Assembly (NCBI GenBank): GCA_048885925.1
Contig: JBHLLG010000087.1
Coordinates: 1 to 12,044 of the forward strand
Length of the DNA stretch: 12,044 nucleotides
Origin: Candidatus Hermodarchaeota archaeon
Lineage (GTDB): Archaea > Asgardarchaeota > Lokiarchaeia > Sigyniarchaeales > SOKP01
Direction of reading: 5' to 3'
Every line of letters starts with the position of its first letter. The first letter of the stretch is position 1. A model generated the notes under the pieces. It was not told where the DNA came from and did no database searches. It saw only the letters and a list, made by a program, of their open reading frames with translations. The translations under genes were made by a program, and so were the position numbers. Positions 604 through 12,044 of this stretch are shown here, in pieces.

Positions 604-1779
604 TTGCCTTTATCAAAGATTGAAGATACAGTTATCCTTTTAGATGTTTCTAGATCAATGCTGAGAAAGGATTTTAAACCAAACAGATTGGCAGTAGAAT
701 TAGAAACAACTAAATATTTCATTCAATCCAAATTGTCTTATGATATGAAAGATCGAATCTCAATAATTACATTTGGCGAAATTACTAGGAAGTTAATTGA
801 TTTTGCATTTGAAGAAAATAAGCTAATCCAATCGTTAAAAAAGATTCAAATTTCAGGTCAAGGAATCTTACATGAAGGAATCGCTTTTGCATTACAAATT
901 CTTGTTGAAGAAATGCGAAAGGTTGGAGGAAGAGTTCCACGCATAATCATAATCACTGATAACAAGTTAATATTTGATATTACTAAATTAGAAAAAATAG
1001 TCAACATAGCTAAAGGATTAGGTGTTTTTATTGATGTCTGTCAATTAAGCGGAACGCAAGATTATGGAAAGTACTCATTGAAGAGGATAACTCAATCTAC
1101 TAACGGGGAATACGGCTTTTATAATAATTCTAAGGCTTTAATTAACGCAGGGAGTATTTTCGCAATGAAAAAGGATGTAAAAGAAACCAGTGATTACTTT
1201 TCGCCTGTGAATAAGGACAAAATTGCTCCTTTAGTTAGTGAAATTGCTTTACCGTTAAAAAGACCAACATTATTAGAATTACGACATATTATAACAGGAA
1301 AATTTCAGACTCAAGAAAAATGCCAAATCTGCCATTCTGCTAAATCGGCTGTTACTGGCGCTGACTTTTTTAGTGAAGGACGTTATTGCCCAAATTGTGA
1401 TCGTTCCATGCATCTTTCATGTGCTGCAATGTGGGCTAAAAAAACCGAATATAAAGAAAATGTTTTCAGATGCCCTTTCTGCTTCTTCCTTTTAGAGATT
1501 TCACCAGCAGCGTTGAAACTCATTAAAGATAAAGAAGATTTAATGCAAGAAATAAAAATTGTAGAAGAAGATTCAGAAACAAAGATGTTATTAATTTCAA
1601 ATCAAGAAATAGAACAAATAGATGCTTCATGCTCTTATTGTCATAGCATTTTTTTAGGTGATTTTAAAGTTTTTAAGTGTGAAAAATGCAATTCATATTA
1701 TCATGAACCATGCCTTCAAAAAATGAGTAAAGAATTAAAAGCCTGTAGGTATTGTGGAGCTAAAATAACCATAGAATAG
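604..1779 (+). CDS. vWA-domain protein (Ssl1/p44- or Rpn10-like N-terminus) with two C-terminal C4HC3 RING/PHD-type zinc fingers
   Basis: N-terminal VILLDVSRSM..KDFKPNRL (DxSxS MIDAS) and IIIITD. Fingers are CQIC-x18-CPNC-x4-H-x2-C-x16-CPFC (1321-1482) and CSYC-x12-CEKC-x4-H-x2-C-x10-CRYC (1630-1755). The TTG start is bounded by an in-frame TAG at 595-597. Confidence 0.85.
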   Translation: MPLSKIEDTVILLDVSRSMLRKDFKPNRLAVELETTKYFIQSKLSYDMKDRISIITFGEITRKLIDFAFEENKLIQSLKKIQISGQGILHEGIAFALQILVEEMRKVGGRVPRIIIITDNKLIFDITKLEKIVNIAKGLGVFIDVCQLSGTQDYGKYSLKRITQSTNGEYGFYNNSKALINAGSIFAMKKDVKETSDYFSPVNKDKIAPLVSEIALPLKRPTLLELRHIITGKFQTQEKCQICHSAKSAVTGADFFSEGRYCPNCDRSMHLSCAAMWAKKTEYKENVFRCPFCFFLLEISPAALKLIKDKEDLMQEIKIVEEDSETKMLLISNQEIEQIDASCSYCHSIFLGDFKVFKCEKCNSYYHEPCLQKMSKELKACRYCGAKITIE

Positions 1780-1852
1780 CTAATTATATATTCTTTCTTT
1801 GTTTAAATTATTTAAGGTATTAATTTTTTTTATATCTAAATAAGAATTAAAT

Positions 1853-1858
1853 GGTGGT
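1853..1858 (+). promoter_or_regulatory. Shine-Dalgarno-like GGTGGT upstream of the putative CTG start of metG
   Basis: GGTGGT ends 6 nt before CTG at 1865 and is the only G-rich patch in an otherwise AT-rich intergenic region. Confidence 0.45.
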
Positions 1859-1864
1859 TTTAAA

Positions 1865-3898
1865 CTGGCAAATAAGTGGATTGTTACATCAGCATGGCCT
1901 TATGTAAATTATACTCCTCATCTTGGTAACTTAATTGGAAGCACTCTTTCAGCAGATGTATTTGCCAGATTTTTACGATTAAAAGGAGACGAAGTTGTAT
2001 TTGTCTCTGGATCTGATTCTCATGGAACTCCTGTAGCTGTAGCAGCAAAAAAATTAAATGTATCAACTGAAGAATTAGCTTTAAAATATCATAAAATAAT
2101 TAAAGATTTACATAATAAATGGAAAATCTCTTTTGATAATTATACAGTAACTCATAATCCAATTCATATAGAATTTGTACAACAATTTTATTTAGATATA
2201 CAAAAAAATGGATATATTTTTGAAAAAGAAATAGAATCGCTTTACTGTGAAAAAGATAAATTATATCTTCCCGATCGCTTTGTAGAGGGAACATGCCCAC
2301 ATTGTGGTGAAAAAGGTGCCAGAGGAGATCAATGTGATAACTGTCAAAAACTTTTGACTCCATTAGAGCTAAAAAAACCTTATTGCGCGATATGTGGGGC
2401 TCCTCCTGAGATTAAAAAAACAAAACATTGGTATATGGATTTCCCAAAATTAAAAGATCGCCTAGAAAAATTAATTAGAGAAAATGAAATTATTCCTCAA
2501 AATGCCAGGCAAATGTGCTTAAATAGTATCGAGGAAGGTATTCCTGAAAGAGCAATTACTAGAGATTTAGAATGGGGTATTCCCGCTCCATTTGATGGAG
2601 CTGAAAATAAGACGATATATGTTTGGTTTGAGGCGGTTTTAGGATATGTTTCAGCTGTTAAAGAATGGGCGGAAAAAATAATTAATAAACCAGAGCAATT
2701 TGATTATTTCTGGAAAGATAAGGAAGCAAAAGCAGTTTATTTTATTGGAAAAGATAATATTATCTTTCATTTAATAGTATTTCCTGGACTATTAATGGCT
2801 TATAATGATAATAAACCTGAAAAAGAAAAATTGGTATTACCTTATAATGTTTCTTCCACAGAGTGGTTAATGTATGAGAATAACAAGTTTTCAAAATCCA
2901 AAGGTATAGGTATCTGGATTGATGAAGCTTTAAAATTGGCTCCATTGGATTACTGGCGTTTTAATTTAATCTATAATAGACCTGAAAAGAGTGATACCTC
3001 CTTTTTATGGTCTGAATTTGAAAATAATGTCAATACTATAAATGATGTTTTAGGAAATTTTATCCATCGTTCTTTAACATTCATTTATAGGCAATTTAAC
3101 AGCACTATACCGAAAAAGATAAAGTTAGACGATATAGATGAAGCATTTAGTTTAAAAATAAATTCAATTTCTTCAAAAATTGGTAATTTATTAGAAAGTT
3201 TTAAATTAAGAAAAGCTTTAAGAGAAATTGTTAAATTTGGAAGAGAAGGTAATATTTATTTAAACGATAAAGCTCCTTGGCATTTGATAAAGAAAAATAA
3301 AGATGCCGCAGGGCAAGTTTTTAATTTATGTGCTCAAGCAGTATATGCTTTAGCAATTCTATTAAGCCCATTCATTCCTGATACTTCTTTAAAAATTTTA
3401 CATTTTATTAATATTCCTCAAAAATTAGAAGAATTATCATGGAATAGTATCAATGATAATGCAATCAAGGAAGGGAGTAAAATTAAAAATCCAGAACCTC
3501 TCTTTGAAAAATTGGATATTAATGAATTAAATGAAAATTTAAAAAAAATTAGAGAAAAAGGTGAAAGTGAAAAAGAAATGGTATCATATGAAGATTTTAA
3601 AAAATTAGATATCCGTGTTGCTCTTATTGAAAAAGTTGATAAAGTTCCTAAAGCAGATAGATTATATAAACTTACCATTGATTTAGGAAGTGAAAAACGA
3701 ACATTAGTTGCGGGATTAGCTGAACATTATAAAGTAGATGAGTTAAAAGGAAAAAAAATTATTGTATTGACAAATTTAGAACCAAGAAAATTAAAAGGTA
3801 TTCAAAGTGAAGGAATGCTTCTTGCAGCGGTTGAGGGTGATACCGTATCAATTTTAAAACCAGATAAGGATATCCCACTTGGAGCAAGAGTGGAATAA
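1865..3898 (+). CDS. metG: Methionyl-tRNA synthetase with C-terminal Trbp111/EMAPII-like tRNA-binding domain (677 aa if started at CTG 1865)
   Basis: The reading frame of ORF 2354..3898 continues upstream to TAA at 1841-1843 and encodes KWIVTSAWPYVNYTPHLGNLIGSTLSADVFARF (HIGH motif HLGN), SGSDSHGTP and zinc knuckles CPHC/CDNC/CAIC. Downstream are ITRDLEWGIP, YVWFEA, FIGKDNIIFH, KFSKS (KMSKS motif) and the OB-fold DFKKLDIRVA...NLEPRKLKGIQSEGMLL. Identity is secure; the exact start codon is uncertain. Confidence 0.97.
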   Translation: MANKWIVTSAWPYVNYTPHLGNLIGSTLSADVFARFLRLKGDEVVFVSGSDSHGTPVAVAAKKLNVSTEELALKYHKIIKDLHNKWKISFDNYTVTHNPIHIEFVQQFYLDIQKNGYIFEKEIESLYCEKDKLYLPDRFVEGTCPHCGEKGARGDQCDNCQKLLTPLELKKPYCAICGAPPEIKKTKHWYMDFPKLKDRLEKLIRENEIIPQNARQMCLNSIEEGIPERAITRDLEWGIPAPFDGAENKTIYVWFEAVLGYVSAVKEWAEKIINKPEQFDYFWKDKEAKAVYFIGKDNIIFHLIVFPGLLMAYNDNKPEKEKLVLPYNVSSTEWLMYENNKFSKSKGIGIWIDEALKLAPLDYWRFNLIYNRPEKSDTSFLWSEFENNVNTINDVLGNFIHRSLTFIYRQFNSTIPKKIKLDDIDEAFSLKINSISSKIGNLLESFKLRKALREIVKFGREGNIYLNDKAPWHLIKKNKDAAGQVFNLCAQAVYALAILLSPFIPDTSLKILHFINIPQKLEELSWNSINDNAIKEGSKIKNPEPLFEKLDINELNENLKKIREKGESEKEMVSYEDFKKLDIRVALIEKVDKVPKADRLYKLTIDLGSEKRTLVAGLAEHYKVDELKGKKIIVLTNLEPRKLKGIQSEGMLLAAVEGDTVSILKPDKDIPLGARVE

Positions 3899-3899
3899 A

Positions 3900-5144
3900 C
3901 TATAATTTTAATGAAAATAAGGGATTTAATCGAGCAATTATTTCTCCAAGATCTAATTGGATTGTTTTAAGAACTACATCTCGTCCTCGATATTCAAATT
4001 GTAATTCACTTACGCTTCTAATTATTTTTAATCTGCTGATATCTGTTTTCAGAGAAGTAACAAAATATCTTTGATCTTTATATTCTAATATATCTAACAC
4101 GTCTTCTACATAATTAAATGCATATCCTCCTCCATGAGGAAGAATACAAGCATTGAATAGAACATCTAAAAGTTCTAAATCTTCTCCTCTTTGTAGAAGC
4201 TCCAAATTTTTAAGAGTTGTATTCGTTAAATTTTTTTTACCACTAAATAAATAAGCAGCAATATCTGCTCTTAAAGTAGTTGGAAAAATGTTAGATTTAA
4301 TAAGATCACAATCTATATCTGTACAATTACTTCCTAAGTACATATTATTATAATCTTTAAGAAACTGATGAGGTTGATTACAAATTATTTCTAATTCATC
4401 ATTAAACAGATGATTCGCAATAATCTGTCTTTTTAAGTTTGAAAATTCTAAAGCCTTTTTACTAAATTCAAAATAATCCCTTGCATCAGAATCTATTAAA
4501 ATATACTGGTTTCCGAATTTAGTGTCTTCTTCAATCGCAATTTCCTTTAAAGTTTTCGATTTATCAATGTAAAGCCCAATTCCATATTGATCATCCCTTA
4601 ATTCGGGACATGAACCGTGAATTAAAAATATATATGGAGAAAAACCGACATCAGATAAACTCTTGGTTTCAAAACAGTTAATAAAATGATTTGAAATTCC
4701 ATAATCCCAATTTAATAAGATATCATTATAATATAGTTCTTCTGATTTAATCATATCAATTCTTTTAATTAATTCGTAAGGATCAGGCAACTCCTTTAAT
4801 CCACCAACCAAGATACCGCAACAATTAGGTTTCGTATTAAGAAAAATTAATTTATCTTTCCCATCGCCCCAATTTATTCTTCCTCCATACCCTAAACCAG
4901 AATTCCATCTAAATTTATTCCGTGAAATCGTTTCATCAGGAGAAGAAATAAATGTTGCTTTAGGTTGCTGTCCATATTTTTCTTGAATAAGCTGAAATTG
5001 GGCTAATCCATATTTCATATTAGCCCTACATAAACGGGAGGTTCCATCATTCAAACCAGTTGAAAAAATAAATTGATTTGCTCTATCTAACAAATCTGAT
5101 TTTGATAACTCAAATAAATTTTGAGAAAGGATGGACGAAACCAT
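3900..5144 (-). CDS. Divergent RtcB-superfamily (RNA ligase-like) protein
   Basis: Motifs occur in RtcB order: SPD (cf. MPD), PNCCG (cf. DINCG), SNHFIN (cf. GNHFLE), IHGS (cf. VHTGS), PHQ (cf. HN), PHGGGY (cf. HGAGR) and the terminal ARLNPLFSLKL (cf. ARLRPIGVAKG). Confidence 0.7.
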   Translation of the reverse strand: MVSSILSQNLFELSKSDLLDRANQFIFSTGLNDGTSRLCRANMKYGLAQFQLIQEKYGQQPKATFISSPDETISRNKFRWNSGLGYGGRINWGDGKDKLIFLNTKPNCCGILVGGLKELPDPYELIKRIDMIKSEELYYNDILLNWDYGISNHFINCFETKSLSDVGFSPYIFLIHGSCPELRDDQYGIGLYIDKSKTLKEIAIEEDTKFGNQYILIDSDARDYFEFSKKALEFSNLKRQIIANHLFNDELEIICNQPHQFLKDYNNMYLGSNCTDIDCDLIKSNIFPTTLRADIAAYLFSGKKNLTNTTLKNLELLQRGEDLELLDVLFNACILPHGGGYAFNYVEDVLDILEYKDQRYFVTSLKTDISRLKIIRSVSELQFEYRGRDVVLKTIQLDLGEIIARLNPLFSLKL

Positions 5145-5280: not shown

Positions 5281-5904
5281 ATGAAAAATTCCTTTCACTT
5301 TGTATTATTTGATTCACTAAAGGAGAAAAAGATTAATGGAGAGTTTAAAGGTTCAATTGTCTCCAAGTGTCAAGACAAAATTATTTTTTCAGATAATATA
5401 AAAATCTCAGATTCTGAAGGGATTTATATATCGGAAGGTTTAATTGTAGGATTTGAAAAGAATGGAAATGAATTTGCGGCATTTTCAAGAAAATCTGATT
5501 TTAAATGGAATTCAAATGAAATACCACTAGAATATTCTATTTCCATTCCTGAAGAGACCATGGAAAAGTATGATCAAGGACAATTCTCAAGCGATTTTCC
5601 ATTTACTGTTAATCTCCTTCACACAGCAGGTTTGCTTCTAAATTCTTCCGATTTTAATATTAATCATCTAAACTTTTTCAAAGGTGAAATTCTTAAAAAT
5701 CCTGTTTCAATGATAAGAGATGGGATTATAATAGCTGATAGAGTTGTTATTGATGACAACGGTGATCCTGTATTTTATGATTGTTTAATTGTAGGAAGAG
5801 AAAAAAGTGAACAATTGAATATAAGCTATGAACATATTATCAATGTTGATGATGAAGCTCTAGAATATATCATAATTTTAGGAATTGAAGAATTAAAAAT
5901 CTAA
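5281..5904 (+). CDS. Hypothetical protein built from two ~100-aa internal repeats
   Basis: 207-aa ATG-initiated ORF with typical codon usage and no family recognised. The pattern FKGxI...II..D...I.D..G.....LIVG.EK occurs twice. Confidence 0.8.
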   Translation: MKNSFHFVLFDSLKEKKINGEFKGSIVSKCQDKIIFSDNIKISDSEGIYISEGLIVGFEKNGNEFAAFSRKSDFKWNSNEIPLEYSISIPEETMEKYDQGQFSSDFPFTVNLLHTAGLLLNSSDFNINHLNFFKGEILKNPVSMIRDGIIIADRVVIDDNGDPVFYDCLIVGREKSEQLNISYEHIINVDDEALEYIIILGIEELKI

Positions 5905-5922: not shown

Positions 5923-7143
5923 ATGCTAATTTTTGTGAATAAAGAACAGAAATTACTTAATCTTTTAAGATTTATGGGTTCACCTTTTAAAAAATTTGTT
6001 TCTACAGGAGAGATTGAAGAAGATCTAGGAATTGTCCAATCTCGGCAAGAAATATTAAATTCTATCATTAATACTGTTGAAAATAATGAAAATCTCATTC
6101 TACCAATTATAGGAGATGTAGGTGTAGGAAAAACCCATTCATATTGGGCTTTAAAACATGAATTATATTATTATAATATTGTCTATATTTCCTTGGAAAA
6201 TGTTATGAAGAAATTTTTTTATTACACTTATTCAGAATTTATTGAAAGTCTGGGAATTGACGTATTGAGAAATATTGCGAAAATGTTATGCAATAAGTGG
6301 GGTGCTTTAGAGAGAAAATTTGGCTTCTTTCATTTAGCAGAAATTGAAAAAGTAAGAAAAATTGCCTTAGAAAAGTGGGCTCCTCAATTCGAAAGTACAG
6401 AAGCGATAACTGATATAATAAATGCTATTACAGCTCATCAATTAGATCCATATAAGACAATAGAAGTTGAAAAATGGTTTTGTGGGGAATTATTAGACAT
6501 AAGAGAGCTTTCAAGATTAAATCTTAATAACGATTTAAGAAATAAAACCAATGCTTATACTATGTTGAAAGTATTAGTCGAAAATTCAATGATAAACAGC
6601 GTGCTATTTATTGATGACTTTGAAAAGATTTTATCAATGTTAAATCCTATATCGATAGAAGAACAAGAAGAAGAAGTTTTTGATCGTAGTTGGCTTTATG
6701 GAAGTAAAGAATCACCTGAAAAACAAACGGCAGAAAAAATAATTGATAAAATTGTTAAGTTAAATAAAATTAGTGGTTTAAAAATTATCATAACTTTGAA
6801 ATCTGCTGAATTTTATCAACAAATTATAAAAAAGTTTGAGGAAATAGATAGAAATCTTTTAAATTTAATAAAAGAGCCTATAGTAATTTCAAACTTTGTT
6901 GAACAAGATCTATTTAAATTTTATAAGAATAGTTTAGAATTATTTTTTGGAAAAATAAATTATTTTGAATATTTTAAGGATTTTTCTGATTCATATTACC
7001 CTTTAAATGAAAAAATTTTGAAATATATATATAATCAAGCAAAAGGCAATCCTAGAGAAATCCTTAAATTATTGATACAAATTTTTAATGAAATAACCTT
7101 ATCTAACAAAGATTTAGATGAAATTATTAAATTTTATCAATAA
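5923..7143 (+). CDS. P-loop ATPase of the AAA+/STAND-like class, BrxD/DUF2791-like
   Basis: Walker A GDVGVGKTH, Walker B VLFIDDFE, C-terminal helical-lid motif AKGNPREILK, and a large helical insert between the Walker motifs with W..GE. An alternative start is ATG 5974 (MGSPF). Confidence 0.8.
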   Translation: MLIFVNKEQKLLNLLRFMGSPFKKFVSTGEIEEDLGIVQSRQEILNSIINTVENNENLILPIIGDVGVGKTHSYWALKHELYYYNIVYISLENVMKKFFYYTYSEFIESLGIDVLRNIAKMLCNKWGALERKFGFFHLAEIEKVRKIALEKWAPQFESTEAITDIINAITAHQLDPYKTIEVEKWFCGELLDIRELSRLNLNNDLRNKTNAYTMLKVLVENSMINSVLFIDDFEKILSMLNPISIEEQEEEVFDRSWLYGSKESPEKQTAEKIIDKIVKLNKISGLKIIITLKSAEFYQQIIKKFEEIDRNLLNLIKEPIVISNFVEQDLFKFYKNSLELFFGKINYFEYFKDFSDSYYPLNEKILKYIYNQAKGNPREILKLLIQIFNEITLSNKDLDEIIKFYQ

Positions 7144-7153
7144 ATATTGTTTT

Positions 7154-7879
7154 TTATCTATTTTTTAGTAATACTTTCTCATAGATATCAATTTCATTAA
7201 GATACATTTCTTTAAAATTTTCTTCCCAATTTGAATCTACAATCATTTTACGAAAAGATTCCATATCAAGAGGAGATTTAAAATATGCCAATAATAAAAC
7301 TCTAATCGATATTGACTTCAAAATTTTATAATTTTCCTGATTATTTAATGAATTGAATAATTGATGAAAATCTGGAAGAAATTTATAAAAGATATCTATA
7401 TATAAGTCCTCTGTTCCAATATCTTTATAATTTAATGCTTGAAAAATATTCCTTAAAATCATACTAGGAAGATTTTCAAAATCATAAATTATCTTAAGAG
7501 CATTAATTTTAATTGGTTCATAATCATCATTTATCGCATATCCAATTAACTTTAATATATCGCCTGTTATTTCTATACGCTTTGAAATTTTTTCGAATGC
7601 TTGAATTATCTCATTTCTAATCCATCTATCTGAAGTATAATAACTTTCTAATAAGTAATTCAAATATTTATGATCTAATGGTGAATTTTTACCTATTTCA
7701 CCTATTAAAAACACCAAATTTAATTTAATTTTATTAATTATTTGAGGCTTAGGAATATCAATGAAATAATTTATATATTTAAGATATTCAATATCGGGAT
7801 TTTCACTTAATTTTATTAGGAAATCATTAATTTCTTCTGGATCTTCAAGCTTCTTAAAATTTTTTTTTAATAATTCCAT
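7154..7879 (-). CDS. HEAT/ARM-like alpha-helical repeat protein
   Basis: Successive HEAT-like units: KIKLNLVFLIGEIG, SDRWIRNEIIQAFEKI, DDYEPIKINALKII. Confidence 0.7.
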   Translation of the reverse strand: MELLKKNFKKLEDPEEINDFLIKLSENPDIEYLKYINYFIDIPKPQIINKIKLNLVFLIGEIGKNSPLDHKYLNYLLESYYTSDRWIRNEIIQAFEKISKRIEITGDILKLIGYAINDDYEPIKINALKIIYDFENLPSMILRNIFQALNYKDIGTEDLYIDIFYKFLPDFHQLFNSLNNQENYKILKSISIRVLLLAYFKSPLDMESFRKMIVDSNWEENFKEMYLNEIDIYEKVLLKNR

Positions 7880-8808: not shown

Positions 8809-9045
8809 TTATTTCATTACTTCAAAATAAATATACCACTGCTCTTCATCATCGAGATATTCTGTTCCTAAATGTTTATGTTTAGTCTTCGCTAAATCAC
8901 GTGGAACAGATTCACTGGCGGGTTTGTAGTCTGTTACCACTTTCAAAACAGTTCCAGGTCTCATTTTCATGAGTTGTTTCTTAGTTTTTAAAGCTGGAAC
9001 AGGACATACTAATCCACAGACATTTAATTCCATATCATATTTCAT
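8809..9045 (-). CDS. tusA: TusA/SirA-family sulfur carrier protein (78 aa)
   Basis: LNVCGLVCPVP (CPxP persulfide motif) followed by PGTVLKVVTDY. Start reassigned to ATG at 9045, which has an SD-like AAGGAG upstream and does not overlap the preceding gene. Confidence 0.88.
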   Translation of the reverse strand: MKYDMELNVCGLVCPVPALKTKKQLMKMRPGTVLKVVTDYKPASESVPRDLAKTKHKHLGTEYLDDEEQWYIYFEVMK

Positions 9046-9079: not shown

Positions 9080-11548
9080 TTAATCACAAATTATAGAAAA
9101 TATCGGTTCTTCCATATCAGGTTCAGCTTTCATTTCAAGTTTCATTAACTGAACTAATCGAAGAGTTTCATATCTAACCTTCTTTGGTTCAATTCCTGTT
9201 TCTTTTGAAACATCTGATATAGTGCTTGGACCTTGAAGGGATATATAATCTAATACTCGCTGCCTTGGGGTTTTTTCAAAGCTCATTAAATCACGCTTTG
9301 CTTTAAGATTAATAGCAGTTTTCAATTCTTCTTCATTTACTTTTACTTGTTCGAATAATCCACTTTCTATTGCCTTCTCAACAAGTTCTTTGCCACGTTC
9401 CGTCCATATTACAACAGTAGTATAACCTTTTTTAGATCCTACTTCACCTGCTGTAAGATCTGAATATATTGCAGGGAAATCTTGACAGTGAGCGCAGAAA
9501 TAATTGCAACTTAAACATCTCCGCGCTTCTTGTAAAGCCATATCTTCATTGAACATTTTATCAATCTCTTCAAAACTCCAACTTATTTCTTCAGTAGCTT
9601 CATCAAGAGTTTCTGGTTTTATTGAGTAATCTTTTGGAGGTTTCTTTGGTCCTGTAAAAAATGAATTTACTATCTTAGATCTTCCTTCAATTAAGTTTTC
9701 CCCTTTTAAATATCGGTCAATTGAGATTGCAGCTTCCTTTCCATGAGCTATTGCAGCAATTGCAACAGCTTTAGAATTACTAATAATATCTCCTCCCGCA
9801 AAAACTCCAGATATATTAGTTTCAAAAGTGATTTCATTTACTTTTATTTTATTCCGGTCTTTCTCCAATTTATTATTTGTGGCTGCATCTATTTGTTCGA
9901 AATCAACAGCTTGACCAACTGCGATTACAATAGAATCCACAGGTATTTCATAATCTGATCCATTAATTTTATTTAATGGCTTTCTTCCATTTTCATCGGG
10001 ATTACCCCACTCGATATTGTAACAATTCAAGACTAATTTATCTTCTTTATTCTGAGTGATTTTAGAAGTTGAAGTCGTAAAGTGAAATTCCATAAATTCC
10101 ATTTCATTTTCAGGGATTTCCCTTAATACCAATTCAAGCTGTTCTTTTGTCATGATATCAACTAGGTGAACTTTTTCAGCGCCCAGTCTAAGAGCCGTTT
10201 GAGCAACGTCAACAGCAACAGGACCTCCCCCAATTATTCCTAAAGTTTTACCTCGAAATTCTTCTTTATTCTCCCAGTATCGATACTTCCTATCCATTAA
10301 GAATGTAATTGCTACATGTACATTTGGTAATGATTCCCCTTCTAAGTGAAGAGTACGAGGCTTATATTGACCTGTTGCTATGAAAATGGCTTTAAAACCT
10401 TCATTTTTCAGATCATCAATAGTCATATCAGGACCTAATGGTTTATTGAGTACAACTTTAACTCCGGAATCCATAATCCTGCCTACATCATAATCTAATA
10501 CATAATTAGGCAATCTAAATTGTGGAACACCAAATCTTAGCATCCCTCCAGTTTGATCTGTCTTCTCAAATATCGTGGGTGCATAACCCATTCTCTTTAA
10601 GAAATATGCTGCTGTTAATCCAGCTGGTCCAGATCCAATAATTGCAACCCTTTTAGCATTTCTATTTAATTTAGGTTTTGATTTTGAAGAATTTTTGACT
10701 CTTTCAATTTCCCATTCTGTTACAAATTTCTTTAATTCACGTATCGCAACTGGATGGTCATCTCCAATTAAGGTGCAACCATGTTCACATTCATTTGTAC
10801 AAATTCTTCCACAAATCGAGGGAAGCGGATTTCTTTCTCTAATTAAATCTACAGCTTCTTGATATTTTCCTTGACGTATTAATGAAATATACCCTTGAGC
10901 ATTAACTCCAGAAGGACAACCATTACAACATGGAGAACATACTAATCCTTTATCTGTTTGTTCAGTTCGAATCTGTGAATTACAAAATAAACCTATCTTT
11001 AATATATCTCTATTCATTTCTTCTTCAATTTCAGCAGCTCCTCGTATTTCACAAGGTACACCAACAATTCCAATTGGATCAAATGTTTCACCAGTAAGTT
11101 CTACCAATTTTTCTAGGACACCAGACCTACCATAAATAACACCAGCTTTTTCAATTACTTCATTAGGATCTGATATAATTGCTGCAGTAGGTTTCTCATC
11201 TTCCTCTTGAACCATAATTATTTCTTTGATTGTCCCATTTTCTAACAATTCTTTAGAAAATGTAGTAACAAATCCTCCACTTGAAGCTTTAGCTAAAGTC
11301 TCAGGATTTTTACTCCTTAATGAATAAATCGCAAGAGGTTGCTTTTCTTCGAATTTTTTTTGGATTACTTGGGGGCAATTTTGGTAACATTTACCACAAT
11401 CTTGCCCATCTCTTTCTAAAATACAATAATCTTTCAATTTCGGACGTCTAAATTCCATTTGAATATGTTTACATGAACCAGCACATAAGCCACATCCTTG
11501 ACATAGACCAGCATCTACTATTTCTTCTCGTAATAATTCAAAACTCAT
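9080..11548 (-). CDS. Multidomain Fe-S flavoprotein: ferredoxin + FrhB/FdhB-family domain interrupted by a GltD/NfnB(SudA)-type pyridine-nucleotide oxidoreductase module + C-terminal winged HTH
   Basis: Ferredoxin motifs CQGCGLCAGSC and CGKCYQNCP. FrhB motifs SSGGFVT, IVGVPC and KIGLFC. Insert with PCCNGCP, NPLPSICGRIC...CEHGC, VAIIGSGPAGL, GGMLRFGVPQFRLP, IIGGGPVAVD, GVFAGGD and EARRCLSC. FrhB resumes with CAHCQDF...SDLTAGEVGSKKGYTTVVIWTERG. The tail is RQRVLDYISLQGPSTISDVSKETGIEPKKVRYETLRLV. Confidence 0.9.
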   Translation of the reverse strand: MSFELLREEIVDAGLCQGCGLCAGSCKHIQMEFRRPKLKDYCILERDGQDCGKCYQNCPQVIQKKFEEKQPLAIYSLRSKNPETLAKASSGGFVTTFSKELLENGTIKEIIMVQEEDEKPTAAIISDPNEVIEKAGVIYGRSGVLEKLVELTGETFDPIGIVGVPCEIRGAAEIEEEMNRDILKIGLFCNSQIRTEQTDKGLVCSPCCNGCPSGVNAQGYISLIRQGKYQEAVDLIRERNPLPSICGRICTNECEHGCTLIGDDHPVAIRELKKFVTEWEIERVKNSSKSKPKLNRNAKRVAIIGSGPAGLTAAYFLKRMGYAPTIFEKTDQTGGMLRFGVPQFRLPNYVLDYDVGRIMDSGVKVVLNKPLGPDMTIDDLKNEGFKAIFIATGQYKPRTLHLEGESLPNVHVAITFLMDRKYRYWENKEEFRGKTLGIIGGGPVAVDVAQTALRLGAEKVHLVDIMTKEQLELVLREIPENEMEFMEFHFTTSTSKITQNKEDKLVLNCYNIEWGNPDENGRKPLNKINGSDYEIPVDSIVIAVGQAVDFEQIDAATNNKLEKDRNKIKVNEITFETNISGVFAGGDIISNSKAVAIAAIAHGKEAAISIDRYLKGENLIEGRSKIVNSFFTGPKKPPKDYSIKPETLDEATEEISWSFEEIDKMFNEDMALQEARRCLSCNYFCAHCQDFPAIYSDLTAGEVGSKKGYTTVVIWTERGKELVEKAIESGLFEQVKVNEEELKTAINLKAKRDLMSFEKTPRQRVLDYISLQGPSTISDVSKETGIEPKKVRYETLRLVQLMKLEMKAEPDMEEPIFSIICD

Positions 11549-11550
11549 AT

Positions 11551-12044
11551 TTATTCCTCTTTAATTTTAATTTCTTTTATAATACCAATTGGATCAATTG
11601 TAAATTCAACTAAGCCATTCTTATAGGTTCCCTCAACCACATCAAAAATATGGGTCCTATATTCTTCGAAGTTATCCTTATCATCAATTTGTGACCTAAA
11701 TCCTCCAAAGAATACATTTGATAAATTCATATTTCCGGCAATCTTACGAATTTCTTGAGTGATTTTCTTATAGTGATCTGGATTCTTATTTTGAATAGAT
11801 TCTTGAAGATTTTCTTCTAATTTTAATAATTCCTTTCGATATTTCTTAGTTTGATCACTAACTTCAATATTATTAGCTCCTTCGTAAGTTTCAATTATTT
11901 TCAATGTTAACGATATCGAATGATCTCCTCCTAATAATCCTGAAATTAAGGGTAATTCTTCAATCAATCTTCCTGTAAAAACATCCTCTAATAAATTACC
12001 TTTTGAAGGAATTCGGCCTTTTGGTAATCCTGAGGTTGGTAAAG
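11551..12044 (-). CDS. C-terminal part of a protein ending in a degenerate [NiFe]-hydrogenase large-subunit-like segment, 5'-truncated by the window
   Basis: The frame stays open from 11967 to the window edge: LPTSGLPKGRIPSKGNLLEDVFTGRLIEELPLISGLLGGDHSISLTLKIIETYEGANNIEVSDQTKKYRKELL. This resembles the group 3 large-subunit N-terminus (E....GR..EE.P.I..RICG.C...H.......E.A.GIEV......R.LL) without the cysteines. It stops 2 nt before the next ATG. Confidence 0.55.
   Translation of the reverse strand, partial: LPTSGLPKGRIPSKGNLLEDVFTGRLIEELPLISGLLGGDHSISLTLKIIETYEGANNIEVSDQTKKYRKELLKLEENLQESIQNKNPDHYKKITQEIRKIAGNMNLSNVFFGGFRSQIDDKDNFEEYRTHIFDVVEGTYKNGLVEFTIDPIGIIKEIKIKEE

Follow-up and report, generated by a model that had tools for sequence, protein, structure and literature searches.

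A FrhB-type protein with a nested NfnL/GltD-type cassette as the last redox gene of a conserved hdr operon in one family of Asgard archaea

Locus and domain anatomy of FrhB::NfnL

This study concerns a gene, here called FrhB::NfnL, on a stretch of DNA from Candidatus Hermodarchaeota archaeon (Asgardarchaeota; Lokiarchaeia; Sigyniarchaeales; SOKP01; assembly GCA_048885925.1), which was analyzed over its full length of 12,044 nucleotides and is referred to as the window; it is the whole of contig JBHLLG010000087.1 (C87). FrhB::NfnL lies on the minus strand at 9080-11548 and encodes 822 residues in a reading frame that is open throughout, with its stop codon at 9080-9082. On the same strand, the 3' part of an MvhG-like gene (last 163 codons, 11551-12042) stops 2 nucleotides before the start of FrhB::NfnL and is cut by the contig end, which falls within this upstream gene. 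Downstream, at a spacing of 34 nucleotides that is the same in relatives, a TusA-like sulfur-carrier gene follows, also on the minus strand (8809-9045; 78 residues from the ATG at 9043-9045; PF01206, 66.9 bits), although its listed open reading frame begins farther upstream at GTG 9087. From the N-terminus, the FrhB::NfnL chain comprises a ferredoxin-like domain for two [4Fe-4S] clusters (11363-11524, residues 9-62), the N-terminal half of a FrhB fold (10958-11353, residues 66-197), which ends at the motifs GVPC166 and GLFC189, a nested NfnL/GltD-type cassette of 487 residues (9497-10957, residues 198-684), the C-terminal half of the FrhB fold (9278-9496, residues 685-757), which begins with C685xxC688xD, and a winged-helix domain (9083-9277, residues 758-822), all on the minus strand.

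A first-pass annotation, made by a model from the sequence letters, had proposed that a FrhB domain is split here by a GltD/NfnB-like module at about 10950-9506, which agrees with the extent of 10957-9497 given above. This was borne out by Pfam, NCBIfam and PDB alignments, which placed the two FrhB halves on either side of the insert. In Pfam, FrhB_FdhB_N (PF04422) matched residues 75-146 with 52.7 bits (gathering cut-off 22), and FrhB_FdhB_C (PF04432) matched, as had been anticipated for a profile scan, in two stretches separated by the insert, the best of which aligned residues 667-738 with profile positions 79-148 of 150 (67 bits; cut-off 23.3). In NCBIfam, query residues 73-193 corresponded to positions 9-139 of the FrhB profile PRK09325 and residues 685-752 to positions 191-256 of the frhB profile. 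Sequence alignment to PDB chains placed residues 74-189 on M. barkeri FrhB 13-138 and residues 685-759 on M. marburgensis FrhB (3zfs_C) 192-264, with the C-terminal half also aligning with 8rja_E 273-338. This order of N-terminal half, insert and C-terminal half is that of a nested insertion and not of an end-to-end fusion, as the first-pass annotation had argued.

The motifs expected of a FrhB-type protein are present on both sides of the insert, namely GVPC (C166), GLFC (C189), CAHC (C685 and C688), DLTAGEVGS and TERG. The four cysteines C166, C189, C685 and C688 align with the paralogue motifs GxPC, GLFC and CxxCxD and are invariant in 71 of 71 aligned homologues, so that the earlier statement that all four were kept was confirmed; we infer that they ligate the FrhB [4Fe-4S] cluster beside the flavin. 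In seven FrhB paralogues of this genome that are unsplit and have both motifs, GLFC and CxxC stand approximately 58-62 residues apart, against 496 here.

The whole-protein AlphaFold2 (AF2) model was mediocre, with a predicted local distance difference test (pLDDT) score of 71.9 and a predicted template modelling (pTM) score of 0.52; pLDDT in the FrhB N-terminal half was mostly 64-93. In a VIA comparison, solved FrhB chains superposed on the model from residue 66 to residues 760-764 with 224-232 aligned residues, Z 22.8-23.1 and a root-mean-square deviation (rmsd) in the range 3.1-3.3 Å; for example, 9r51_B gave Z 23.1 and rmsd 3.2 Å with 224 residues aligned over 66-760, and 6qgr_B gave Z 22.8 with 232 aligned. 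As the larger FrhB half has at most 132 residues, an alignment of 224-232 residues means that both halves join one rigid superposition. The two halves therefore re-form one fold in the model; the first-pass annotation had named a failure to do so as refuting its proposal. ElpB (8rvu_E), the F420H2-oxidizing donor of Elp-Hdr, also matched the model (Z 22.4). A Foldseek search with the whole model listed matches to the GltD-type module only; the FrhB match surfaced in the VIA comparison.

Concerning the flavin and coenzyme F420 site, the accessible part of PMC3930138 describes a QDGG loop that surrounds the FAD pyrophosphate in FrhB and residues 128-188, a helix plus a three-stranded sheet, that wall the F420 access channel. 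In the query, SSGG replaces QDGG and GVIYGR replaces GT(K/R)Y; of the nine unsplit paralogues in this genome, eight have xDGG, and AS(N/S/D)GG is common to the whole operon-linked clade. The 128-188 channel subdomain is absent from the query, where the cassette sits at that position. The canonical F420 site is thus altered, as had been suspected, and the use of F420 by the FrhB site appears doubtful. Because the genome encodes CofG, CofH, CofD and CofE, all scoring above curated cut-offs, the flavin of this FrhB part (FrhB') may still accept F420H2. The first-pass annotation had further supposed that the insert replaced the normal segment between GLFC and CxxC, and this did not stand: the closest insert-less relatives, with only approximately 17 residues between the two motifs, are already without that segment. 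On these alignments, the 128-188 subdomain was already missing when the cassette arrived, and the insert entered a short loop and replaced no subdomain.

The cassette begins with an Fe-S subdomain (198-285), followed by Rossmann domains for FAD and NAD(H) (approximately 298-617), a linker and a tail (644-684) that terminates in RCLSC with C678 and C681. Fer4_20 (PF14691) matched residues 195-282 with 79.4 bits (gathering cut-off 25.8), Pyr_redox_2 (PF07992) matched residues 300-603 with 99.3 bits (gathering cut-off 26.1), and PRK12771 spanned 202-689. The cassette fell under the curated cut-offs of the named NCBIfam models PRK12771 (398.6 versus 516), gltA TIGR01316 (296.6 versus 471.75) and PRK12814 (360.8 versus 916), and FrhB::NfnL belongs to no named NCBIfam subfamily. 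Among solved structures, the NfnL-like domains of Bfu-type NfnA (9n5u_A, E 9.7e-91; 9bov_A on residues 203-684) and StnC (8oh5_C on residues 201-683) match the cassette best, with E-values of 1e-78 to 1e-91, 32-38% identity and Z 28.8-30.1; in the VIA comparison, 9bov_A gave Z 30.1 and rmsd 4.0 Å over 419 aligned residues. Classical NfnB/NfnL, GltD and DPD rank after these.

In the NfnL-like domain of NfnA, as described in the accessible part of PMC11829005, the FAD takes the hydride of NADPH, is chain-terminal and was judged incompatible with bifurcation, and electrons exit via the clusters A7 and A6, of which A7 is held by Cys108, Cys147, Cys151 and Lys170. In a HMMER alignment with 9bov_A, these A7 ligands map to C211, C250, C254 and K273 of the query, all four of which are invariant. 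C207, C258, C678 and C681, likewise invariant, would be the natural ligands of a second, distal cluster. At the C-terminal junction, the string C678-x2-C681-x3-C685-x2-C688 spans both this distal cluster and the FrhB cluster; from this chain geometry, the two clusters must adjoin and would be neighbours.

The cassette appears to be circularly permuted relative to classical NfnL/GltD, with the N-terminal helix and RCLxC moved to the C-terminus, as in NfnA and StnC. This is suggested because residues 464-501 of a same-genome paralogue with a classical NfnL, to which query 644-681 aligned by BLASTP (E 0.002 in a two-sequence search), directly precede its residues 506-919, which align with query 207-617, so that the order is reversed in the query. 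Such a permutation would bring both ends of the cassette together at one cluster and thereby make insertion into a loop easy. In the representative library, cassette relatives were found nested in or fused to HdrA, MvhD, CCG/HdrD-like, NuoE-like and NuoG-like proteins, which suggests that the cassette is a recurrent insertable module.

The nucleotide site reads VHLVD464IM, against YRR...MPA in NfnA, StnC and the classical paralogue. Asp464 (codon at 10157-10159, minus strand) lies at the end of beta-2 in the second Rossmann motif; nearly all of the 71 sequences have D here, and one distant member has E. By the textbook rule, an acidic residue in this place points to a preference for NADH over NADPH, and on this basis the cassette is predicted to prefer NADH. 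Of the NAD(P)H linkage proposed earlier, the nucleotide-binding cassette was upheld and NADPH was not, as the site carries the NADH-type Asp rather than YRR.

Other cassette-bearing proteins were observed alongside. P0133 (1172 residues) is matched by the FlpD/MvhD profile only at positions 1-83 of 123, after which a cassette starts, and P0135, P0143 and P0174 are HdrA-like proteins with a cassette inside. In the same genome (G000), a 920-residue paralogue (L002; contig C31, 23732-26494, minus strand) carries the closest same-genome relative of the insert, with 55% identity and the same NADH-type motif (DLVDIL); P0130, which represents this type, consists of Fer4, the cassette and two CCG (HdrD-like) domains. 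A further protein of 920-925 residues (L004; contig C1, 352693-355470, minus strand) is an end-to-end fusion encoded directly beside a glutamate dehydrogenase gene, with an N-terminal helical region, two [4Fe-4S] sites, an unsplit canonical FrhB (QDGG, 62 residues from GLFC to CxxC) and a classical NfnL/GltA-type part with YRR.

The two terminal domains were additions to the first-pass annotation. The eight cysteines of the N-terminal domain (C16, C19, C22, C26, C42, C51, C54 and C58) are all invariant in the 71 sequences, and the domain aligns with the N-terminus of Fsr (7np8_A, 4-168) and with that of FrhB-like 8rja_E and has a weak Fer4_7 match; the AF2 model is poor over it (pLDDT approximately 30). 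Folded alone, the winged-helix tail reached a pLDDT of 88.8. Foldseek matched it to MarR/ArsR-type regulators and Z-alpha domains (TMq 0.67-0.74), and phmmer gave weak matches to PKZ Z-alpha (E 0.004-0.007), while a Pfam scan at E-values up to 5 yielded no significant family, DNA-binding or other. In total, the chain is predicted to carry two flavin sites and five [4Fe-4S] sites.

Operon, distribution and history of the insert

In six of six relatives, FrhB::NfnL closes a run of eight genes with one orientation, each adjoining or overlapping the next, in the order DsrH-like (113 residues), DsrE2-like (138), HdrC (186), HdrB (304), HdrA (679), MvhD (154), MvhG-like (411) and FrhB::NfnL. In the genome of the window, the same upstream genes are on contig C62, which begins with 77 bases identical to those that end the window and encodes the N-terminal 273 residues of the MvhG-like protein; farther upstream, C62 carries two DsrE-like genes and a TusA gene. 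HdrA, MvhD and MvhG-like genes stand directly upstream in all 33 representative loci having an upstream flank, hdrA, hdrB, hdrC and mvhD are encoded together with the donor module, and the MvhG-like gene overlaps the start of the target in some loci. TusA is directly downstream in six of six relatives and in 35 of 36 representative loci having a downstream flank. FrhB::NfnL is therefore the last redox gene of a conserved hdrCBA-mvhD-mvhG-like operon.

The part of the MvhG-like protein encoded in the window is 81% identical to residues 249-401 of the 411-residue protein of a relative (L017). The protein matches Oxidored_q6 in Pfam and MvhG in PDB (best matches 9sw2_E and 5odc_E), and it keeps the Cys-rich motifs of a hydrogenase small subunit, with many invariant Cys. 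Matches to the [NiFe] large subunit (PF00374) lie on contigs C7, C39 and C11 only, with none on C62 or C87 and none among the eight operon genes scanned in L017. The operon likewise encodes no NfnS-like partner and no FrhA/FrhG partner. A complex prediction for FrhB::NfnL with residues 90-260 of the MvhG-like protein scored 0.00 (mark 0.32), a value that bears neither way on binding. The MvhG-like protein also has a conserved extension of approximately 150 residues after its small-subunit-like part (gene at L017 7068-8303), for which neither Pfam, scanned at E-values up to 5, nor PDB gave a significant match. Elsewhere in the genome, approximately ten further FrhB-family paralogues were noted on C11, C13, C23, C47, C5, C86, C115 and C33. 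Several of these are beside MvhD-/HdrA-like genes (for example, C11 58440-63843), which indicates that FrhB-Hdr modules have expanded in this organism.

Conservation of the architecture was high. Among the 120 best clusters from a collection of 5.8 billion proteins, 117 had 817-825 residues, the same Pfam set and 71-100% identity, and the other three were shortened; mean column identity in the 71 aligned homologues was 82%. Clustering at 50% identity added just two more full-length clusters (56% and 46% identity), besides fragments. Across 201 sampled genomes of the phylum, with four candidates scored per genome, the long form, full-length or cut by a contig end, was present in at least 18 of the 41 genomes of the window's own family (f1), a count that is a lower bound for this reason, and in none of the 160 genomes sampled from 26 other families (E <= 1e-100). 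A scan of species representatives gave 38 loci, all in metagenome-assembled genomes labelled Promethearchaeota/Promethearchaeia, a few with other Asgard names, and no named culture is among their sources. The long form was thus found only in one family of the phylum in the genomes sampled, and the suggestion that the architecture be sought across Asgard genomes was too broad. A chimeric assembly, which the first-pass annotation had named as a possible source of the unusual order, was rejected, since the architecture recurs in the homologous clusters, the family genomes and the representative loci counted above. Three DNA runs from three studies gave short mixed-strain contigs with no joints or indels, none of which spanned the gene.

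The history of the insert could be followed within the same operon. In family f7, four of 43 genomes have an insert-less FrhB' at E <= 1e-60, and all three loci examined have HdrC, HdrB, HdrA, MvhD, MvhG-like, FrhB' and TusA. This FrhB' has 345 residues, a winged-helix-like tail and the short GLFC-CxxC loop described above. The presence of the same operon with an insert-less protein shows that the position of FrhB' in the Hdr operon predates the insert.

The window's family also has a short form of 366-399 residues (19 clusters at full coverage), of which one, in genome G065, occupies the same operon position. A short form of approximately 380 residues as the ancestor of the long form was rejected on two grounds. 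The short forms keep cassette-derived stretches flanking the gap (GCTLIG..ELKKFVTEWE.. and F.EI.KM...RCxSC), with four Cys that, judged from the alignment, could still hold the distal cluster. In a tree rooted with the 345-residue forms, the 18 short forms made one clade (Shimodaira-Hasegawa-like approximate likelihood ratio test, SH-aLRT, 100) nested among long forms; this was a quick search over 407 shared columns, from which the cassette columns were dropped under a 60% fill rule, and its 18 short, 29 long and 8 outgroup rows were chosen by hand. One insertion followed by one internal deletion is the most economical account. The winged-helix tail is kept in the long, short and insert-less 345-residue forms. 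Because both insert-less forms persist, the FrhB' flavin site probably works alone, with the cassette as an added second input.

Other frames of the window were noted as well. A gene at 604-1779 (plus strand) encodes 391 residues with a vWA/Ssl1-like domain followed by Cys-rich zinc-finger-like segments, with weak C1 and PHD matches. A methionyl-tRNA synthetase frame at 1844-3898 (plus strand), open from 1844 onward, takes in the N-terminal catalytic part. None of its first 170 codons is ATG, GTG or TTG, and the first listed start is TTG 2354; the true start may be an unusual codon (in-frame CTG 1865 or ATT 1880), or there may be a small assembly error near 1850. The four consecutive frames at 3900-5144 (minus), 5281-5904 (plus), 5923-7143 (plus) and 7154-7879 (minus) matched no Pfam family at E <= 0.001; their order is conserved in another genome of the genus (L021), with 50-76% identity.

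Proposed electron path and alternative readings

The analysis shows how the domains are arranged and conserved, how the model folds, which operon holds the gene and in what order the evolutionary events took place. On these grounds, we consider it probable, with room for doubt, that FrhB::NfnL serves as the electron-input subunit in a cytoplasmic HdrABC-MvhD complex in which a catalytic subunit of the hydrogenase or formate-dehydrogenase kind is lacking. The scheme that follows goes beyond these observations where it assigns cofactors, favours NADH, assumes a physical complex, sets a direction for the electrons and names a substrate for Hdr.

In this scheme, NADH would donate a hydride to the cassette FAD, from which electrons would leave singly through two [4Fe-4S] clusters, one proximal (held by C211, C250, C254 and K273) and one distal (held by C207, C258, C678 and C681). 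From the latter they would pass directly to the FrhB [4Fe-4S] cluster (C166, C189, C685 and C688), and the onward path would run through the N-terminal ferredoxin domain to the MvhG-like protein, MvhD and HdrA. HdrA would then bifurcate, sending electrons to ferredoxin and to HdrBC, and HdrBC would probably pass its share to a disulfide or persulfide borne by the co-encoded TusA/DsrE/DsrH proteins; for a hydrogenase-linked Hdr of another Asgard archaeon, carrier-bound persulfides were proposed in a 2025 preprint. The FrhB-type flavin would be an older, second two-electron entry site that may use F420H2.

Several points weigh against this interpretation. The pLDDT of the AF2 model is under 50 in precisely the Fe-S regions and the two junctions (1-63, 191-210, 251-268 and 632-690), and the cluster geometry and ligand assignments come from alignment. 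SSGG and GVIYGR depart from the canonical flavin-site motifs, so that the usual flavin binding might be lost. The NADH preference follows from one sequence rule, and the carriers named are putative substrates of HdrB. The sole RNA contig (238 nucleotides, run X20) lies on 11748-11985, which is the upstream gene and not the target. Moreover, the direction could be reversed towards the reduction of NAD+, and H2 could be the donor if the orphan MvhG-like protein recruited a large subunit whose gene lies elsewhere; both possibilities are taken up below.

The first-pass annotation had pictured a free-standing, single-chain, two-flavin oxidoreductase of the NAD(P)H:F420 or NAD(P)H:ferredoxin:F420 type, which might bifurcate at its cassette FAD in the manner of NfnSL. 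Its two-flavin, single-chain character was retained, as two flavin-type domains and five predicted clusters lie in one chain, and the four Cof proteins of the genome, the end-to-end FrhB-NfnL fusion beside the glutamate dehydrogenase gene, by which the pairing recurs in the same genome, and the bifurcation known for NfnL of NfnSL (accessible part of PMC11829005) are in its favour. Its free-standing character was not retained, however, in view of the strict linkage to hdrCBA-mvhD-mvhG-like genes that abut or overlap, and the operon has no NfnS-like partner. The FrhB 128-188 subdomain that forms the F420 channel is absent, with QDGG changed to SSGG (PMC3930138, in the part accessible). Among solved proteins, the cassette stands nearest to the input domains of NfnA and StnC, which do not bifurcate, and given the strict hdr linkage, bifurcation, if any, is more plausibly located at HdrA. 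An enzyme of the free-standing kind is, in our estimation, quite unlikely.

TusA/DsrE-type gene sets are typical of the sHdr loci of sulfur oxidizers, and in the present case two TusA copies, two DsrE-like genes, and DsrH-like and DsrE2-like genes flank the hdr genes. As flavin and Fe-S modules are reversible in principle, the Hdr part might instead oxidize thiols or sulfur bound to the carriers, whether or not reduced ferredoxin takes part, and the cassette might output to NAD+ as in sulfur-oxidizing Hdr-like systems. Against this direction, the classical set of HdrABC, MvhD and an MvhG-like protein is that of bifurcating reductive complexes, and we hold the reverse direction to be unlikely. 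With H2 as the donor, the MvhG-like protein would pair with a distant [NiFe] large subunit and FrhB::NfnL would become the outlet to NAD+ or F420, making an H2:NAD(F420) hydrogenase on Hdr. The Cys-rich small-subunit motifs and the three large-subunit loci of the genome speak for such a pairing, whereas the absence of a large subunit from C62, C87 and the eight operon genes scanned in L017, together with a small-subunit homologue that already stands beside the large subunit on C11, renders it very improbable. Finally, the winged helix may be regarded as a DNA-binding redox sensor, by which the enzyme would also regulate transcription as PutA does. The domain is confidently modelled, resembles MarR/ArsR and Z-alpha proteins and has been kept in the long, short and ancestral forms, but no DNA-binding family reached significance and winged helices also act as protein-docking modules; we give this role the slimmest of chances, while noting that it is compatible with an electron-input subunit and does not exclude it.

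If FrhB::NfnL is indeed the electron-input subunit of an Hdr complex, a broader picture may be drawn, which is tentative and against which we would sooner wager than for it. In this picture, Lokiarchaeia would run Hdr-type bifurcation driven by NADH without a hydrogenase subunit of the complex's own; NADH from fermentation, and perhaps F420H2, would reduce ferredoxin uphill, paid for by the reduction of TusA/DsrE-bound persulfide, and the low-potential electrons would serve syntrophic release of H2 or formate. The permuted cassette would be a plug-and-play part, spliced into loops of FrhB, HdrA or MvhD, here gained once and later excised with its cluster left behind.

The role of many Asgard Hdr complexes and the donor that serves them without coenzyme M (CoM) and coenzyme B (CoB) is an open question that bears on models of syntrophic metabolism. 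For one conserved complex, this locus offers a testable answer, with NADH as the proposed donor and operon-encoded sulfur carriers as the likely acceptors. The three natural versions in the same operon, insert-less, cassette-bearing, and cassette-deleted with the cluster kept, form a structure-function series. The apparent permutation would, furthermore, explain why an NAD(P)H module is nested in several Fe-S proteins, and it may be useful for the engineering of electron-input modules.

Comparison with known systems

A literature search, mostly of titles and abstracts and with supplements outside its scope, found no description of a FrhB split by an NfnL/GltD cassette, of the permutation or of a gain-and-loss series, and a FrhB split by NfnB/GltD is not mentioned in the accessible parts of PMC11237513 and PMC13580544. 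The architecture, which the first-pass annotation had not recognized as characterized, thus appears without a published description within that scope. The co-location of frhB, hdrA and mvhD has been noted in Korarchaeia.

FlxABCD-HdrABC of sulfate reducers places an NADH-dehydrogenase module and an MvhD homologue on HdrABC, with a small sulfur carrier as the proposed acceptor; it differs from the present case in being bacterial and in having an NADH module of unrelated kind. The F420-reducing hydrogenase FrhB (3zfs/4ci0/6qgr) shares with FrhB::NfnL the fold, the four cluster Cys and the GG of the pyrophosphate loop, but its residues 128-188 have no counterpart here, its QDGG is SSGG, and its FrhA/FrhG partners are missing. 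NfnA and StnC (9bov, 9n5u and 8oh5) have the same segment order as the cassette, with the RCLxC tail after the Rossmann domains and the three Cys and Lys of A7 conserved; in those proteins, however, the unit is fused end to end between other domains and uses NADPH with YRR, whereas here it is nested and carries the acidic VDI (463-465).

In architecture, the closest system is HdrA of anaerobic methanotrophic archaea (ANME-1), in which HdrA9-11 contain a 500-residue NfnB-like insertion through which NAD(P)H was proposed to enter Hdr chemistry (PMC9012536, in the part accessible). The same kind of cassette is nested there in another Fe-S domain of an Hdr system, although the host is the inserted ferredoxin domain of HdrA and not FrhB, and the lineage is another one; FrhB as a cassette host is not described in the accessible part of that source. 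In function, the closest are the Elp-Hdr and Fdh-Hdr complexes of methanogens, ElpABC-HdrABC and FdhAB-MvhD-HdrABC, where an unsplit FrhB-type subunit oxidizes F420H2 and feeds HdrA via MvhD (PMC12350162, in the part accessible). With Elp-Hdr, the present system shares a relic of a catalytic partner kept as a scaffold or wire, ElpA there and the orphan MvhG-like protein here, although the relic is a remnant of FdhA in the one and a hydrogenase small subunit in the other. ElpB, moreover, is unsplit and takes F420H2 only, whereas FrhB::NfnL has a nested NAD(H) flavin cassette and no F420-channel subdomain, and sulfur-carrier genes stand here in place of the CoM/CoB context. FrhB::NfnL is a real and conserved protein, made of known parts along known lines and mechanistically suggestive for the energy metabolism of Asgard archaea.

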